DNA of 42,139 nucleotides. Source: Candidatus Woesearchaeota archaeon. Lineage in GTDB: Archaea > Nanobdellota > Nanobdellia > SCGC-AAA011-G17 > JAGVZF01. The notes beneath the pieces were generated by a model, which worked only from the letters and a program-made list of their open reading frames with translations, did not search any database and had not been told where the DNA came from. The stretch is taken from the NCBI GenBank assembly GCA_016185565.1, contig JACPNH010000049.1, forward strand, positions 1 through 42,139, read 5' to 3'. Below are positions 18,636-24,550 of this stretch, one piece after another (position 1 is the stretch's first letter; every line of letters begins with the position of its first letter). Position numbers and translations under genes: made by a program.

Positions 18636-18772
18636 TTTTATTATGTTTTTAATTCAGAATAAAAGTTTTTCTGTTAGTTATGTTACACTAAAAGATAGGC
18701 TTATAAATTTATTGTGTACATATAATATTTCAATATATACTATACATTTATAATTGTGATTTGGTGATTTGA

Positions 18773-19843
18773 TTGAAAGAAGAAAAAAAGTCTTTGGAAA
18801 ATTATGTTAAATCTTATGTTAAATTCTTTGCCAAAGTAAATGCTTTATTCTTGAGCTATTCATTAATAGGGAATACATTTTTACATTCAGTAGTTAATGC
18901 ATCACCATCTGCTAAAGATAATGATGTTGTAATAACAGCCCATTCTGAGGATAGTGAACCTATTGCTAATTTCAATACCATATATGTAAATGCTACAAAT
19001 GGCAATATAACCTATTATCCTAAAACTGGGAGTTTTATAGGAACTTTTACATCCAGTGATGGAGCTGCCTATTCTGATTCTACTGTACAAAAAGGATTTG
19101 TAAAAGAACTAGAAAAAATAAGTAGGGGTGTTGACATTATTGCCTTTGGAAACAGAGATGCATCTTTAATTGCCCATGGTATATACAGCATTAAAAAAAG
19201 AAGTGATGGGACTTATTATTTTGAGAGAACAACTGTTTCTGAAAAATTAATTTACAGCGATACAGAGGCTTCTAAACCGGAAAAAAAGCAATCTACCCAG
19301 AAAGAGCAATATGCGCACGAAACAACGGTTAAAAAACCTAAGCCTGAAATAGCGCATCGCCCTAAACAAGCTGTAACATCAATAATAAAACCACAAGTTG
19401 CGCCAGACAGACAAAATACTGTCTATGATAAGCCTATTAGTGCAGAAAAAAAAGAAACAGCTGAAGAAAAACCTAAATTACCTAGGTATATTATGCTCAC
19501 TGATAAAACTGAAACTGTTCCAATGATAAGAGAAATAAAACCTTCTGCTCATCAATTGGCGCAATTAACTCCATCACCAAAAATTAAAGAGCCAAAACTT
19601 GTAATTCCAAAATTAGAAATTACAGCAAGTGCAAGAACTGATAGTTTAGAGGGTATTGTTGGCGAAAACCAAATAGCTAGAATAAATGAAAGGATAGCAC
19701 AAGACTTTGAGAAAAAGAGTAATTATACTGTGCCTATATTAGTGGCTAGTTTTTTAACTGGAATTACATTGGCTGCAATTCTAAGCAATGATGGAGAAGA
19801 AAGCAAACCTGTAAAAAATAACACTCGTACAGGAATCAAATAG
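18773..19843 (+). CDS. Pro/Lys-rich protein with N-terminal and C-terminal hydrophobic anchors (paralog A)
   Basis: TTG start. The order is an N-terminal hydrophobic segment, a globular domain of about 130 aa, a K/P/E-rich linker, DSLEGIV, a C-terminal TM helix and the tail ...TRTGIK. Confidence 0.55.
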   Translation: MKEEKKSLENYVKSYVKFFAKVNALFLSYSLIGNTFLHSVVNASPSAKDNDVVITAHSEDSEPIANFNTIYVNATNGNITYYPKTGSFIGTFTSSDGAAYSDSTVQKGFVKELEKISRGVDIIAFGNRDASLIAHGIYSIKKRSDGTYYFERTTVSEKLIYSDTEASKPEKKQSTQKEQYAHETTVKKPKPEIAHRPKQAVTSIIKPQVAPDRQNTVYDKPISAEKKETAEEKPKLPRYIMLTDKTETVPMIREIKPSAHQLAQLTPSPKIKEPKLVIPKLEITASARTDSLEGIVGENQIARINERIAQDFEKKSNYTVPILVASFLTGITLAAILSNDGEESKPVKNNTRTGIK

Positions 19844-19960
19844 ATAATAGACTCCTTAATTTTTACCATTTTAAAATAGTTACAAAAACGAAACTTTTAT
19901 AAATGGGTTCTATATGCTAGAATCTATATAACTTAAACTTTATTATAAAAAATAAATAAT

Positions 19961-20998
19961 GTGAGCTATAAAATGAGTCAAGAAAAAAATTCGGTTGATA
20001 GTTATGTTTATTCTGGTAAAATTGCTAGTTGGGATACTAGAAGTATTAGAGGATATATAAAAAATTCTTTTTATGGTTTTTTAACAGCAGCTGTTCTTGC
20101 TTCTTCAGTTGGCATGCCTGAATTAAGTCATGCTTCTCGTAGAATAATAGAAACCACAACTGCAAAATATGATACTACAAATACTACAAGAAAAACTACA
20201 CAAATAAAACTCCATCAAAAATGGTCGTTACATCCTCGTTTTGGATTATTAAATAAGCTTGAGGCTACAGTTCATGATCCTAAGGGTAAAGACAATATAA
20301 AATTTGAAAGAGGCTATATTGATGAAAAATTCGGACTTTTTGGACTAAGCGGCGATAGATACGCAGGGATAGAATTAAGTACTAAAAGAGATACTTCTTA
20401 TGTTCCAAAACCAGTACATGTAACACCCAGTAAAAGAAGACCTTCTAGACCGCGCGCACTAAGCGCTCCAAAAAAACCAGCGGTCGAAGAAATCAAAGAG
20501 AAAAAACTTATAGCCCCACCCTATACTACTCAACCAGATACTACCAAAAAAATTTCTCTAGAAGATATATATAAAAAATTAGAACGTATACAAGAAGAAT
20601 TAGCAAAAGAGGCATATCAACCACAAATTAGACCTACAGAAGAAAAGCCATCAAAACCTTCTATACCATATACACCCTTAAATGTACCAGAAGTACCAGA
20701 AGACACCTCTCGTGTTGAGGAAAAACCATTACCATATAAGCCTCCCCAATTACAAGAATTACAAGAAAAACATGAAGAGACGCATCCTGATAGTTTAGAG
20801 GGCATAATAACTCCATTACCACCATTACCATTAACGCCACAACCCATATCAAAAGTTTCTGAAAAAAAAGGCCATAAAATTTTGTACTGTGCTTTATTGG
20901 TCGGAATAGCTGCTGGAATAGCTTATGCAATAAAATCACAGGAAAAAGAAGAACCTTCTGATGTATTAAAAAGAAGGGGTGGAACTGGCGTCAAATAA
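19961..20998 (+). CDS. Pro/Lys-rich protein with N-terminal and C-terminal hydrophobic anchors (paralog B)
   Basis: Starts at GTG 19961 or ATG 19973. It has the same architecture as 18773-19843: a proline-rich linker (PSKRRPSRPRALSAPKKP..., PLPPLPLTPQP), DSLEGII, a C-terminal TM helix and the tail ...GGTGVK. Confidence 0.55.
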   Translation: MSYKMSQEKNSVDSYVYSGKIASWDTRSIRGYIKNSFYGFLTAAVLASSVGMPELSHASRRIIETTTAKYDTTNTTRKTTQIKLHQKWSLHPRFGLLNKLEATVHDPKGKDNIKFERGYIDEKFGLFGLSGDRYAGIELSTKRDTSYVPKPVHVTPSKRRPSRPRALSAPKKPAVEEIKEKKLIAPPYTTQPDTTKKISLEDIYKKLERIQEELAKEAYQPQIRPTEEKPSKPSIPYTPLNVPEVPEDTSRVEEKPLPYKPPQLQELQEKHEETHPDSLEGIITPLPPLPLTPQPISKVSEKKGHKILYCALLVGIAAGIAYAIKSQEKEEPSDVLKRRGGTGVK

Positions 20999-21016: not shown

Positions 21017-23119
21017 ATGTTTACAAAAAATATAAACAAATTTATGTTTGTGATGTTTTCATTATTTTTGATATTGCCTTTTTCAAGCATCGACGTTAAT
21101 GCTAATGTTTCTGTAACATACACCTATAAAAATTCGCAGGGACAATTACAAGAAGATGTAGATTTTCTTGTATTCGATTGCCTTGATGCAAGCTGTAGAA
21201 ATGTAGAAATTCCAGCATTTGTAAATGGAGACAATTCGGGAAATTCTAATGATTATTTGCCTAATTATGATATCACAGTCACATATCCCTCTACACAAGA
21301 AACTGCATATGGATATTCAGAGTACCATTACAAAGATGGCTATTTGCCAATGGAGTTTTTTGTTACAGCTCATGGAAACTTAGTTTCAAATGAAGATATC
21401 ACATTCACAAAAAAAGCTGACTGTTCAAGCCATGTGGAAAACTTCAGGATTATTAATGCTGAAAAACCCAACTTGCCTATACAAATATTTGTAAAAACCA
21501 AATTAGACGCAACAACCTTTAGTGCTTTTAGTACAAATCCCGACACTCCTGAATATGTGCCTATGCAATTCAAAGACTTTTATAGTGCTGAAACTAAAGT
21601 GACATTAAAGATATATGACAGTAATAATTTAGTTGTATTCAGCAAACAACAAATTGTTAATTTATTCATGGATTCTAGCGAAGAAATAAAGTTTGAATGG
21701 ATTCCAACAAGGGCTGGCGAATATAAAGTTGTGATGAGCACAGATGTAACAGACAATCAATGTTCAAGTTCAATACCTCAAAGCGTTAGCTCTGAGTTTA
21801 CTGTTGTAAGGACCTCATTAGACAAGTGCTATACCTTAATAAATAATCTGAGAACAAGTGTAATAGAGCCTTTCGTTAGCGAGAATGTTGAAATAAAAGC
21901 AAGCAAAATCAGCAATTACAGAGATGCTGATGGAGATTTGCAGGCATTGGCAACGGATGTTGATTTAAAAATCTTTGATCCTGATGGAAATCTAATAAAC
22001 TCGCAATTCAAAGCATTACCTAAAAATTCTGACACAGTAAATCCTGTAGAATTTAGCTTTAACTGGGTCCCAAGTGAAAATGGATTACATACAATTAAAG
22101 TCCATGGTATTGCTAATGATCCAATATGCCAAGGAAAAGAAAACCTTGATGAGACAGAAACAATGAATATTCTTGTTAAAGATCAAGGAAGAATAGACTT
22201 GAACTTAAGGATGATTGGCAATAAAGAAATAAATGAAAATTCTGAATTGAGATTTGGTATTAAAGCAGACTATAATGGAGGAAAGGAATTAAGGTTTTCA
22301 GCAGAAAACTTGCCTGAAGGCGCTTCCTTTAATCCTAGAACAAAAGAATTTTCATACAAACCAAGCTACGATGTAGTGAGTCATTCCTTGTTAAATGATG
22401 TACTAAATTTAGTGGGAATAGATTTAAGCAAAGATTTCTTAGTTACTTTTAAAGTAACAGATGGAACCTTGAGTGATCAAGAAATAATAAGAATTAGAGT
22501 AATAGACGTAAACAGGAACCCAGAATTAGCTTTTATAAATAATATAGAAGTAAAAGAAGGAGACTTAGTAAAAATAATTCCTAGTGCGAGTGATGCTGAT
22601 AGAGACAGTCTAAAATTTTTCTTTACTAGGCCTTTAAACAGTAGAGGAGAATGGAGAACTAAAAGAGGTGATATGGGAGTTTATTTTGTGACAGTAACTG
22701 TAAAAGACAATTTTAATGGACAGGATTCGCAGCAAGTAAAGATAAAAGTAAATCCTGTTCCTGATAAAATACCGCTGCCACCTGAAGAATTTGTACAAGT
22801 AAAAAATCATAAATTAAGAACAACCTCCTTATTCATAGAAAATGAGAAAGTAAAACCAGGAGATTATTTAGTAGTGTACACTAAAATAAAGAATGACGGT
22901 GAACTTGATGAAAGTAATGTTAAAATAAGGATGACGATTCCAGAGCTTGGAATAGTAGAGCAGAGAGCTGTCAACAGTCTAGAAATAAATGACCAAAGGC
23001 TTAGAATATTTATGATAAATATTCCTCTTGGAACAAAGCAGGGTTTTTATGTATTAAAGAGTCAGGTTTTTAATTCTAATTCACAGGAAACAGAGGCAAT
23101 AGAATTTGAGGTGACATGA
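21017..23119 (+). CDS. Large secreted surface protein with Ig/cadherin-like and CARDB-like domains
   Basis: Signal peptide. Contains LRFSAENLPEGASFNPRTKEFSYKPSYD and ASDADRDSLKFFF, which are cadherin-like or putative-Ig patterns. The C-terminal part VKPGDYLVVYTKIKNDGELDESNVKIRMTIPELG is CARDB-like. Confidence 0.6.
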   Translation: MFTKNINKFMFVMFSLFLILPFSSIDVNANVSVTYTYKNSQGQLQEDVDFLVFDCLDASCRNVEIPAFVNGDNSGNSNDYLPNYDITVTYPSTQETAYGYSEYHYKDGYLPMEFFVTAHGNLVSNEDITFTKKADCSSHVENFRIINAEKPNLPIQIFVKTKLDATTFSAFSTNPDTPEYVPMQFKDFYSAETKVTLKIYDSNNLVVFSKQQIVNLFMDSSEEIKFEWIPTRAGEYKVVMSTDVTDNQCSSSIPQSVSSEFTVVRTSLDKCYTLINNLRTSVIEPFVSENVEIKASKISNYRDADGDLQALATDVDLKIFDPDGNLINSQFKALPKNSDTVNPVEFSFNWVPSENGLHTIKVHGIANDPICQGKENLDETETMNILVKDQGRIDLNLRMIGNKEINENSELRFGIKADYNGGKELRFSAENLPEGASFNPRTKEFSYKPSYDVVSHSLLNDVLNLVGIDLSKDFLVTFKVTDGTLSDQEIIRIRVIDVNRNPELAFINNIEVKEGDLVKIIPSASDADRDSLKFFFTRPLNSRGEWRTKRGDMGVYFVTVTVKDNFNGQDSQQVKIKVNPVPDKIPLPPEEFVQVKNHKLRTTSLFIENEKVKPGDYLVVYTKIKNDGELDESNVKIRMTIPELGIVEQRAVNSLEINDQRLRIFMINIPLGTKQGFYVLKSQVFNSNSQETEAIEFEVT

Positions 23120-23212
23120 GCAAGAGTTATTAACTACCGAAAAGTTTATAAATTAGTTTATAACTCTAAAATGATAATATTAAACCTTAAAATTTTAAGG
23201 GGGGGTCAAAAA

Positions 23213-24550
23213 ATGAATAAAATACTGAAAATAGTGAACGTGTTTTTTGTGGCATTATTGCTATTAGTGCCAAGTTATGTTAAAAATGTAAGATCAGCAG
23301 AATCTCCTGACTATTTTATAGAAAGGATTGATGTTGATGGCACAACTGTTTTTGAGGGCGATCTTAATAGAGTTAGTCGGGACACGGTGAATCTTGAAAG
23401 AGGAGAGACATTGACAGTTGAAGTATGGGTGAGGGGTGTTGAAGATATTGGAGATAATAATTTAAGCGGTGATACTGTAGATAATGTAAAAGTAAAAGCC
23501 TTTATGAGCGGTGGTGAATTTGATGATGTCGAAGACACATCTGATGTATTCACTGTAAGAGAAGGTGTTCTACATAAAAAAGTATTAAGATTAGACATAC
23601 CAGAAGACTTTGATATTGAAGACGAAACAACTACTTTAAATATTGAGGTATTTGATGGCGACAATAGTAGAGAAGAAGATCTTGAATTGAATATCGTAGA
23701 GAAGAGACATGCCTTAAACATATTAGATGTAATACTTAATCCTGGCTTGACAGTTGAATCTGGCAAGACGGTATTTGGAACCGTTAGGGTAGAAAATCTA
23801 GGCGAAAAAACAGAAAGAGATGTAAAAATAGTTATGTCGATTCCAGAACTAGGATTAAGCACTAGAACATTTATAGATGAACTTGTAAATGAAGAAGACG
23901 CAGAGAATGACGATGAAGATGACAAAGTAAGCGCTTCTAGCGATGAATTATTCTTGAAGATACCAGAAGACACTAAAGAAGGAACATACACCTTAAAGTT
24001 TGATGTTGTATACAACAGAGGACATTCAAGTTTAACCAAGACATATGCCTTGAATGTTAAAGGTATTGCTCCAACTCTTGTAAAGGAACAGGCAATTGCA
24101 AGCGTTGATACCACATTACAAACTGTTGAGGCAGGAAAAGGTGCTATATTTAAGGTTATGGTGACAAATCTTGGAACTAAGACGATGACTTTCAGTACAG
24201 ATGTAGCAGGTGTTACAAGCTGGGGCAATTCAAGAGTTGATCCGGCATCAGTAACAGTTGCTCCCGACCAAACTGGAGAAATGTTTGTATTTATAGGAGC
24301 AAATGAAAATGCACAAGCAGCAGATAATGCAGTAACCTTAACTGTAAAATCTGGAGAGAATATAGTAAAACAAGTTCCAGTAACAGTTAAAGTAAGTGGA
24401 GCACAAACACAAGATACATTCGGCAGCTTAAGAAGAGGCCTAGAAATTGGGTTCATAGTATTATTAATAGTACTAGTAATCCTTGGCTTGATACTTGCTG
24501 CTAGAAAACTTGGTGGCAAAGAGGAAGAAGAAGGAAAAACTTACTACTAA
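23213..24550 (+). CDS. S-layer-like or surface protein with CARDB-like domains and a C-terminal TM anchor
   Basis: The G-rich SD (AAGGGGGGG) 6 nt upstream favours the ATG at 23213 (MNKILKIV..., a signal peptide) over the track start at 23171. Contains VRVENLGEKTERDVKIVMSIPELG, acidic stretches, the C-terminal helix IGFIVLLIVLVILGLILAA and a charged tail. It sits directly upstream of EF-1alpha. Confidence 0.6.
   Translation: MNKILKIVNVFFVALLLLVPSYVKNVRSAESPDYFIERIDVDGTTVFEGDLNRVSRDTVNLERGETLTVEVWVRGVEDIGDNNLSGDTVDNVKVKAFMSGGEFDDVEDTSDVFTVREGVLHKKVLRLDIPEDFDIEDETTTLNIEVFDGDNSREEDLELNIVEKRHALNILDVILNPGLTVESGKTVFGTVRVENLGEKTERDVKIVMSIPELGLSTRTFIDELVNEEDAENDDEDDKVSASSDELFLKIPEDTKEGTYTLKFDVVYNRGHSSLTKTYALNVKGIAPTLVKEQAIASVDTTLQTVEAGKGAIFKVMVTNLGTKTMTFSTDVAGVTSWGNSRVDPASVTVAPDQTGEMFVFIGANENAQAADNAVTLTVKSGENIVKQVPVTVKVSGAQTQDTFGSLRRGLEIGFIVLLIVLVILGLILAARKLGGKEEEEGKTYY

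Follow-up and report, generated by a model that had tools for sequence, protein, structure and literature searches.

A tandem pair of fast-evolving, putatively membrane-anchored proteins at a surface-protein operon of a Woesearchaeota archaeon

In the Sulfolobales, the S-layer has two components, SlaA and SlaB, and SlaB is the membrane stalk (PMC6911244). TonB and TolA span the periplasm of Gram-negative bacteria with a proline-rich, K/E-rich extended segment that joins a membrane helix to a globular domain. In surface proteins with archaeal sorting signals of the PGF-CTERM type, a conserved motif is combined with a C-terminal transmembrane (TM) helix and a short tail, and PACE-CTERM-PROT (NF033506), a family of putative S-layer proteins from Woesearchaeota and Pacearchaeota, has a TM helix and then a short tail whose extreme C-terminus is conserved. 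Here we compare these systems with two adjacent genes, A and B, from a tiny Candidatus Woesearchaeota archaeon of groundwater. They lie upstream of the genes for SlpL and SlpS in a window of 42,139 nucleotides (the whole stretch of DNA that was analysed). They are tandem paralogs, and the undescribed, lineage-restricted family to which they belong is here called X. The Woesearchaeota are an abundant, uncultured group whose members are believed to be attached to other cells, and next to nothing is known of how they construct their envelope.

The X proteins resemble SlaB in their one or more predicted extracellular domains, their long spacer, and their single TM helix at the C-terminus; SlaB has a Sec signal, and the N-termini of X look signal-like. 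Also, the gene lies beside, and is probably co-expressed with, a gene for a large anchor-less surface protein that is thought to be held off the membrane. However, A and B have no sequence similarity to SlaB, and searches of Pfam, NCBIfam, and PDB sequences with A and B found no match. The spacer is a coiled coil in SlaB but is disordered and rich in Pro, Lys, and Glu in A and B, and SlaB has two or three beta-sandwich domains, whereas in the AF2 models of A and B a few strands of low confidence precede about 130 disordered residues. Other differences are that the X gene precedes its partner, that a third, TM-anchored protein (SlpS) is present, and that the ectodomain of X is hypervariable and is absent from the minimal members of the family.

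The sequence-only reading had described the linkers of A and B as TonB-like. This is true of their composition: proline is at 12–17% (3.4% genome-wide), lysine at 13–16% (9.4%), and glutamate at 10–13.5% (6.8%). They also join a membrane helix to a globular domain, but the likeness is one of composition only. The polarity is reversed, with the TM helix at the C-terminus in A and B; archaea do not have an outer membrane; and no TonB_C domain was matched. Homology to TonB was rejected.

Could the motif, TM helix, and tail of A and B be a sorting signal that is cut by an archaeosortase-like enzyme, with lipid attachment afterwards? The tripartite layout is superficially present, and the neighboring SlpS is in a family that is named for its conserved C-terminal region. 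But the motif of A and B is apart from the TM helix, not adjacent to it as in PGF-CTERM and PEP-CTERM, and the tails in the family are long (19–35 aa) and Gly-rich or acidic instead of being a short basic cluster. Also, the exosortase/archaeosortase family (PF09721) was not found in any of the five genomes searched, which are G000 (84% complete) and G001, G002, G006, and G020 (96–98% complete, with X present). An archaeosortase signal was rejected on this result, and we consider the sorting reading to be extremely improbable. As for PACE-CTERM-PROT, its proteins share with A and B the organisms, the operon, and the arrangement of TM helix and short tail, with an extreme C-terminus that is conserved in each case (YY in SlpS, G[IV][KR] in A and B), but A and B do not match NF033506. 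X is a separate family of partner genes.

Parts of proteins A and B

The features of the two genes, in window coordinates, are:

18773–19843, + strand: gene A, the distal paralog, an open reading frame of 356 aa with a TTG start; its orthologue is the distal gene of contig L042
18773–18904, + strand: residues 1–44 of A, a probable Sec signal peptide with a charged n-region, a weak h-region, and a VNA/S site
18905–19264, + strand: residues 45–164 of A, a small, beta-rich, variable ectodomain (AF2: a few strands and one helix, low confidence)
19265–19639, + strand: residues 165–289 of A, a K/P/E-rich linker of 125 aa, predicted to be disordered (composition; AF2)
19640–19657, + strand: residues 290–295 of A, the motif DSLEGI (a 16-nt identity with gene B spans 19638–19653)
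19664–19840, + strand: residues 298–356 of A, a juxtamembrane helix INERIAQDFEKK, a TM helix (319–337), and a 19-aa tail ending in TGIK (AF2, KD19, profile A4)
19973–20998, + strand: gene B, the proximal paralog, an open reading frame of 341 aa whose best start is the ATG at 19973
19973–20137, + strand: residues 1–55 of B, a long n-region, an h-region FYGFLTAAVLASSVG, and a putative SHA/S site (KD15 1.51)
20390–20788, + strand: residues 140–272 of B, a P/E/K-rich linker with one helix (196–213) (composition; AF2)
20789–20806, + strand: residues 273–278 of B, the motif DSLEGI (the 16-nt identity spans 20787–20802)
20876–20995, + strand: a TM helix of B (302–320), rich in small-xxx-small patterns, and a 21-aa tail ending in TGVK (KD19, AF2, profile A4)

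Both reading frames are present as had been claimed, and the two proteins have the same order of parts. The sequence GGTGA (18763–18767) is 5 nt before the TTG start of gene A, and gene B has an alternative start, GTG, at 19961. Each protein has one strong hydrophobic helix near the C-terminus (KD19 2.0–2.1) and a weaker one near the N-terminus (KD19 1.1–1.2). In A, the N-terminal segment has KD15 1.45 and KD19 1.11, with an AF2 helix at residues 2–41, and the C-terminal part has KD19 2.13, with AF2 helices at 298–314 and 320–338. In B, the TM helix has KD19 1.99 and an AF2 helix at 301–323, and the h-region is nearly the same in the proximal protein of L042 and in P0007.

The AF2 models were made from shallow family alignments and are poor overall (pLDDT 46–47). 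In the ectodomain of A, which is weakly similar to that of the distal protein of L042, only a hairpin at residues 137–153 reaches a pLDDT of about 80. The linker of A (12% P, 16% K, and 10.4% E) is modeled without secondary structure at pLDDT under 50; the linker of B is 17.3% P, 13.5% E, and 12.8% K.

Relatives of A and B

Aligned directly, A and B are only marginally similar (BLASTP E = 0.066 over the last 71 aa), so their paralogy is established only through relatives. A metagenome contig from the same genus (L042) carries the same complete tandem pair, and the C-terminal 100-aa regions of its two proteins match each other at 8e-13, which bears out the earlier proposal that A and B are paralogous. 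B matches the proximal proteins of G001 (3e-7) and L042 (9e-7), and A matches the distal protein of L042 (E = 1e-3, 26% global identity), with the stretches YYPKTG, SLE, and IN.R.A..FE.KS in common.

As the sequence-only reading had supposed, the motif, TM helix, and conserved end form a genuine, conserved C-terminal module, which other genomes also carry. All family members have the motif [DQN]-[SY]-L-E-x-x-[IV] at 70–110 residues from the C-terminus; the motif lies 26–45 residues before the TM helix in the family and 23–24 residues before it in A and B, and the helix lies within 19–35 residues of the end of the chain. Against C-terminal profile A4, A scored 56.6 bits and B scored 62.8 bits, and the best of the 1556 other ORFs in the genome reached 10.4 bits against the C-terminal profile. 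The combination of DSLEG with a TG[IV]K end is found only in A and B among the ORFs of this 0.8-Mb genome.

Ordinary searches recover little of this family. Word-indexed searches with A, B, and the C-terminal alignment returned no more than the queries themselves or a few “hypothetical” proteins, and six-frame searches with A and B across 40 relatives returned nothing credible. Among 1.84 billion proteins, a profile of the C-terminal module identified only about nine that belong to the family, and every named copy in the databases is a “hypothetical protein.” When we compared profile A7 to the 61 genomes of the order, the strong matches were its own seeds only (from families f1, f15, and f28 of the order), and matches at 14–24 bits were mostly TM helices of other proteins, including SlpS. 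The family's prevalence beyond f1, f15, and f28 rests on position and architecture, which can recover families that sequence searches miss.

The minimal members, from f15 and f28, are just 123–142 aa long. They amount to little beyond a signal with a lipobox, a motif resembling DS[LI][EN]G[IV] (VDSINGV or VETINGV), about 35 aa, and finally a TM helix and a tail (GGExGGxG), both of which are rich in Gly. Their scores against the f1 profile are low (11–17 bits) and are above the genome background; together, these weak scores, the position, and the architecture suggest that they are homologous to the f1 proteins. Among distant members, the signals have LLASGC, TSGC, or SLGC lipoboxes or else an RRDFL Tat motif with SAGC. 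An 809-aa protein from L051 was rejected as a member: it has an internal TM helix and a LysM-like segment, and it shares only the position and the Gly-rich end.

Given the very low sequence conservation and the failure of ordinary searches to find homologues, one might suspect that these are low-constraint filler ORFs, with no specific function, that share only a signal and a TM-like composition. This can hardly be so, because across genera and across families the genes retain their reading frames, position, architecture, short motif, and C-terminal end, and because they have a conserved promoter and are tightly coupled to SlpL.

Position upstream of SlpL and SlpS

The surrounding features are:

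18700–18708, + strand: TATA-like element CTTATAAAT upstream of gene A, read from the sequence, a putative archaeal promoter element
19860–19904, + strand: conserved block between genes A and B, with a T-run TTTTTACCATTTT and a TATA box TTTATAAAT (19896–19904), a putative terminator and promoter
21017–23119, + strand: SlpL, a 700-aa secreted CARDB/Ig-like protein with no membrane anchor (Pfam CARDB, 3e-6; orthologues in family f1)
23171–24550, + strand: SlpS, a putative S-layer protein of 459 aa that has a C-terminal TM helix and ends in TYY (partial match to NF033506)

The block between A and B is nearly invariant in four genus-level relatives, even though the flanking coding sequences of A and B have diverged beyond alignment. 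Gene B is followed by SlpL after a gap of 18 nt that contains GGAG, and B is probably the first gene of a B-SlpL(-SlpS) transcription unit. In all f1 genomes and the metagenome relatives, the X gene ends 4–25 nt before SlpL, and it has the same position in families f15, f28, f2, and f21 (0–25 nt overall). All 61 genomes of the order contain the SlpS family; SlpS itself matches the C-terminal half of the NF033506 model only (2e-21, 76 bits, with a cut-off of 110 bits).

The type of upstream gene also co-occurs perfectly with one N-terminal domain of SlpL (residues ~29–150, nt 21101–21466) across 17 loci from outside the window's own family, although these loci are phylogenetically related, so the count overstates their independence. 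An HMM of this domain scored 57–104 bits in all eight loci with an X-type upstream gene, 23–25 bits in the three loci with a larger X-like gene, and at most 4 bits in all six loci with no X or with a different upstream gene. The C-terminal domain of SlpL is present in nearly all of the loci. In the eight loci (order-level and metagenome) with an X-type gene, SlpL has no C-terminal TM helix; in the three loci where SlpL itself has a TM helix, the upstream gene is larger and its own TM helix is weak or absent. As a point against a tether role for X, some genomes (G013 and G014) have an anchor-less large surface protein at this position without X, and in that protein the matching N-terminal domain is absent. 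Both the operon and the co-occurrence make the link to the downstream surface-protein genes firmer than had been proposed.

Our leading interpretation, in which we have about even confidence, is that X is a membrane protein of type I that tethers SlpL or acts as its partner. The N-terminal segment would be a Sec signal and would probably be cleaved; the C-terminal Gly-rich helix would stop transfer and anchor the protein, leaving the short Gly-rich tail in the cytoplasm. The conserved core runs from the DS[LI][EN]G[IV] motif through a juxtamembrane helix and its K-rich collar to the TM helix and tail, and might then bind the N-terminal domain of the secreted, anchor-less SlpL at the outer face of the membrane and so tether or organize SlpL beside the TM-anchored SlpS. 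In the window's family, the core may have gained an N-terminal extension, which is a disordered K/P/E-rich stalk of about 125–133 residues (with a reach of up to ~40 nm if fully extended) and a small ectodomain. In this reading, X is a family of exported single-pass (type I) membrane proteins encoded by the first gene of an X-SlpL-SlpS operon in the Woesearchaeales; the existence of the family and its fixed place in the operon are shown, and the topology and the binding to SlpL are predicted. The analysis defines an unannotated gene family at the start of a conserved surface operon, with a specific candidate partner (the N-terminal domain of SlpL), and offers a testable model for how an anchor-less surface protein could be held on a DPANN cell.

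The variable ectodomain and membrane topology

Within the genus, A and B are 22–31% identical to their counterparts, versus 66–74% for SlpL and a GTPase, and A and B evolve far faster than the neighboring genes. A comparison of L103 with L042 gives flanking DNA that is 94.7% and 96.3% identical and middle segments (519 nt versus 333 nt) that do not align. The middle ectodomain is swapped as a cassette between near-identical strains, and such wholesale replacement suggests that it is a surface-exposed variable tip.

These observations raise the alternative that A and B are mainly display or adhesin stalks for a hypervariable tip, for recognizing host cells or evading viruses, and that they lie next to SlpL because of shared regulation only. 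The swap between flanks of about 95% identity, the rapid evolution, and a stalk long enough to reach the cell surface all fit. But the minimal members, which have neither tip nor stalk, keep the position and the core module, and the perfect co-occurrence with one SlpL domain would need an extra explanation. We consider this unlikely as the main role; it is compatible with the tether model as an added function within family f1, and the stalk-borne domain is a candidate determinant of host or virus interaction. A more specific version of the tether model is similarly speculative: the core of ~90 residues (a strand-like DS[LI][EN]G[IV] motif, the K-collar, the Gly-rich TM helix, and a GGExGG-type tail) would serve as a membrane receptor dedicated to docking the N-terminal domain of SlpL, perhaps by strand donation, within a three-protein envelope architecture that is specific to the Woesearchaeales. 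In the window's family, the receptor would have been extended into a stalk that passes through the surface layer and carries a cassette-switchable tip, for host recognition or virus evasion by presumed symbionts.

In every member, small-x-small sites come after a weak h-region, and the n-, h-, and c-regions look signal-like. In A, B, and their close relatives, a helix breaker comes after the weak h-region and before sites of the V-N-A, S-H-A, or A-F-A type, and this –3/–1 pattern, common to all relatives, makes cleavage of the signal in A probable. A and B had been described as doubly anchored, which does not fit an N-terminal segment that resembles a Sec signal peptide of the cleavable kind; attachment at both ends would apply only to the distant relatives that have a lipobox Cys. 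An extracellular linker, which had also been proposed, does fit the signal-like N-termini, the lipobox or Tat-lipobox signals that distant relatives have, and a middle domain that is hypervariable in the manner of a cassette.

Alternatively, the topology could be inverted: with no N-terminal signal, the proteins would be tail-anchored, with the K/E/P region in the cytoplasm as a scaffold under the S-layer locus and only the Gly-rich tail outside. K/R residues are clustered directly before the TM helix and the tails are neutral to acidic, so the positive-inside rule speaks against a tail in the cytoplasm, above all in genus g3. (The tails had been described as basic; they are Gly-rich, with +4/–3 charges in A and +6/–4 in B, and are net acidic in relatives.) Disordered, K/E-rich composition is common in cytoplasmic proteins, and a TM helix so near the C-terminus is as expected for a tail anchor. 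However, all members have signal-like N-termini with small-x-small sites, distant members have a lipobox Cys or Tat motifs, and minimal members have RRR or K clusters directly after the TM helix, in the tail. The variable cassette and an operon shared with two exported proteins also argue against inversion, which we consider quite unlikely. A pilin-like class III signal was ruled out because the [KR]-[GA] cleavage motif is inconsistent across members: a site of the K-G-V-S-A-V type is found in g2 members only, versus A-K-V in A and R-G-Y in B. Furthermore, archaeal type IV pilin-like proteins do not have a C-terminal TM helix, and all X members do.

At the DNA level, the 16-nt identity between genes A and B that had been noticed is real: CTGATAGTTTAGAGGG occurs exactly twice in the window and in 0 of 100 shuffles, and none would be expected by chance. 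It encodes (T/P)DSLEG in both genes. Orthologues of A and B spell the same DSLEG motif with other codons, which implies that the constraint acts on the peptide and rules out a nucleotide-level element. Given the shared peptide, the chance of the same codons at D, S, L, and E is about 0.02, and the identity reflects either luck or a small conversion tract.

Genes A and B in their genomic setting

The window corresponds to contig C46 of G000, an archaeal MAG of 0.8 Mb (84% complete, GC content about 33%) whose relatives are labelled Woesearchaeota or Nanoarchaeota and come from groundwater at the Hainich and Rifle sites. In the window, the tandem genes A and B precede two surface-protein genes, which we call SlpL and SlpS.

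Genes A and B and their downstream neighbors
18773-19843, + strand: A
19973-20998, + strand: B
21017-23119, + strand: SlpL, secreted CARDB/Ig-like protein (700 aa)
23171-24550, + strand: SlpS, 459 aa, C-terminal transmembrane helix (TM)
3' of SlpS, + strand: EF-1alpha

In NCBIfam, SlpS hits NF033506 ("PACE-CTERM-PROT, putative S-layer protein") with a value of 2e-21; the hit falls short of the curated threshold and spans only the model's C-terminal half. Every sampled genome of the order (61 of 61) contains this family. G000 encodes a second, full-length PACE-CTERM-PROT (653 aa; G000:C40:1759-3639, - strand; 180 bits, above the cut-off), which may be the main S-layer protein.

All of the features that a sequence-only reading had listed for A and B are present in the window. 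In both proteins, the C-terminal helix is strong, the N-terminal hydrophobic segment is weaker, and the linker has a marked excess of P, K, and E. Among the ORFs of G000, only A and B have both DSLEG and a TG[IV]K terminus. The 16-nucleotide identity noted between the two genes, which encodes (T/P)DSLEG, has exactly two copies in the window, with 0 expected. Given the common peptide, the identical D-S-L-E codons have a chance of about 0.02. Orthologues encode this motif with other codons, so the target of selection is the peptide and not the DNA. Near its 5' end (18802-18824), gene A has a perfect 12-nt tandem duplication (TTATGTTAAATC x1.9), which gives YVKSYVK in the signal n-region. Overall, the observation was confirmed, and its interpretation is supported in part.

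Synteny, divergence, and cassette replacement

With A and B as queries, neither word-indexed searching nor a six-frame search of 40 relatives yielded anything; relatives were recovered by synteny. Within the window's taxonomic family (f1), SlpL has orthologues at 66% identity within the genus and at 36–45% in two other genera, and the gene directly 5' of each has the same build as A and B. This build is a signal-like N-terminus, a variable middle, a K-rich collar, and a Gly-rich TM, with a [D/Q/N]-[S/Y]-L-E motif 70–110 residues before the C-terminal end and a tail ending in G[IV][KR], GVGGR, or G[VD]ENP. The C-terminal module proposed from A and B recurs in other genomes. A tandem pair like the window's is also found in a same-genus genome (G001) and a metagenome contig (L042).

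Pairwise BLAST (distal, position of A; proximal, position of B, adjoining SlpL)
L042 distal vs L042 proximal: E = 8e-13
B vs G001 proximal: E = 3e-7
B vs L042 proximal: E = 9e-7
G001 proximal vs G002: E = 2e-5
A vs L042 distal: E = 1e-3

The direct similarity of A to B is marginal (E = 0.066); it is via relatives, by the L042 pair, that their paralogy is established. An exhaustive search of 1.84 billion representative proteins with a profile built on the C-terminal 90 residues gave 10 matches (eight or nine of them credible), and the named database copies are annotated as "hypothetical protein." The family is real, yet sequence search barely detects it. One database protein (P0008; 165 aa, from a 2170-nt JGI contig) joins a PF00501 AMP-binding-enzyme N-terminus to the exact C-terminal 55 residues of a member from genus g2 and is probably a gene-call or assembly chimera.

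Same-genus identity is 74% for a flanking GTPase and 66–67% for SlpL but just 22–31% for A and B versus their own orthologues, with coding DNA that is beyond alignment. The A–B intergenic block is almost invariant in four relatives (a T-run, then AACATTTATAAATA) and marks a putative promoter in front of B. Because the B–SlpL gap is 18 nt, B would be the first gene of the surface operon. Positions 19860-19992 (T-run, TATA box, 5' leader) are 70–79% identical among genus-level relatives, whose flanking coding sequences are not alignable; a GGAG before the ATG of B is found in relatives and is absent from the window copy.

In two near-identical strains (L103 and L042), DNA identity is 94.7% and 96.3% on either side of the proximal gene's middle, and the middle itself is unrelated (519 nt versus 333 nt). 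The ectodomain has been replaced as a cassette, as is typical of exposed surface determinants. The A/B family is new, narrowly distributed, and extremely fast-evolving.

Positional analogues and the SlpL N-terminal domain

From the order's other taxonomic families, we sampled 20 loci around the short SlpS paralog; in 13 of these, a large surface-protein gene occupies the SlpL position beside SlpS. In families f15, f28, f2, and f21 and on the metagenome contigs L050 and L051, a gene 0–12 nt 5' of SlpL encodes a signal-like N-terminus and a Gly-rich C-terminal TM, then a tail rich in Gly (GGExGGxG...Q/N). The f15 proteins, just 123–142 aa long, run from a lipobox signal (LLASGC) through VDSINGV or VETINGV and a stretch of about 35 residues to the TM and tail. 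The f1 profile gives these positional analogues 11–17 bits (maximum over the 1556 ORFs of the window's genome, 10.4 bits), which suggests that they are distantly homologous to the f1 members. In the minimal (f15) lineages, the C-terminal module of A and B is the entire predicted mature protein; the variable domain and P/K/E stalk are an N-terminal addition.

The f2 analogue (L095 3672-4712, genome G007) has a twin-arginine motif (RRDFLRIAG), then a lipobox (NSAGC), and ends in a run of >10 glycines. To our knowledge, a Tat-exported lipoprotein in this operon slot is unusual outside haloarchaea. In f4 and f8, a conserved pair (L083 3490-4760; L091, L093, L094) replaces the A/B-type gene directly 5' of SlpS or SlpL; one protein has about 188 aa and the other about 230 aa, starting MK(A/S)LVFD...

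At 17 loci, the large surface-protein gene that occupies the SlpL position was scored with an HMM built from the N-terminal domain of SlpL (residues ~29–150).

N-domain score by type of upstream gene
A/B-type gene: 8/8 loci, 57–104 bits
Larger A/B-like gene: 3 loci, 23–25 bits
Upstream gene absent or of another, beta-barrel-like type: 6/6 loci, ≤4 bits

Nearly all loci have the SlpL C-terminal domain. SlpL lacks a TM wherever the A/B-type protein has a clear one, and loci whose SlpL carries a TM have a different upstream gene. Because the loci share descent, the comparison falls short of a formal test, but the co-occurrence points to a pairing of the A/B-type protein with the SlpL N-domain.

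In other Woesearchaeal families, a protein of 411–649 aa precedes the SlpL-like gene, and the window-type N-domain is then absent.

Loci with the 411–649-aa protein
L032 4007-5506
L038 2950-4185
L097 4063-6012, reverse complement
L102 2760-4403

The L032, L038, and L102 proteins carry a signal peptide; those of L032, L038, and L097 end in ...YHF, ...VRF, or ...KRF, and that of L102 ends in ...GGQKDE. Such an aromatic end is reminiscent of bacterial outer-membrane beta-barrels and is odd in an archaeon.

Topology and known systems

We consider it likely that the family has type I topology, with the linker outside the cell. All members have signal-like N-termini with small-x-small sites, distant members have lipobox or Tat-lipobox signals, and the minimal forms carry basic residues after the TM; the variable cassette and the two exported partners in the operon also favor an external linker. 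The charges in f1 argue for the opposite orientation: a K/R cluster precedes the TM, and the tails, which had been described as basic, are acidic or neutral. This pattern is strongest in genus g3. Structure prediction of A and B was uninformative. The term "doubly anchored" would fit the lipobox-bearing relatives only, and the proposed likeness to TonB extends to linker composition and nothing beyond it.

An archaeosortase-type signal was excluded because the layout does not fit and because PF09721 was found neither in G000 nor in four near-complete genomes containing the family. By analogy, the nearest functional counterpart is SlaB, part of the SlaA/SlaB S-layer of Sulfolobales. In SlaB, a Sec signal and extracellular domains are followed by a spacer and a C-terminal TM, and the protein stands beside an anchor-less canopy protein (PMC6911244). 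SlaB has no homology to A and B, and its spacer is a coiled coil instead of a disordered Pro-rich segment. From position, architecture, and co-occurrence only, we infer that A and B are membrane stalk partners of a secreted surface-layer protein, a variation on a known theme.

SlpS (24500-24550) and its orthologues across the order (L083-L102) end in a TM, a K/E/D-rich tail, and an invariant ...[ST]YY or ...YYYYP.. C-terminus, and a 751-aa neighbor in L045 likewise ends in ...KYY. Predicted cytoplasmic tails with a conserved extreme C-terminus seem to recur among these envelope proteins.
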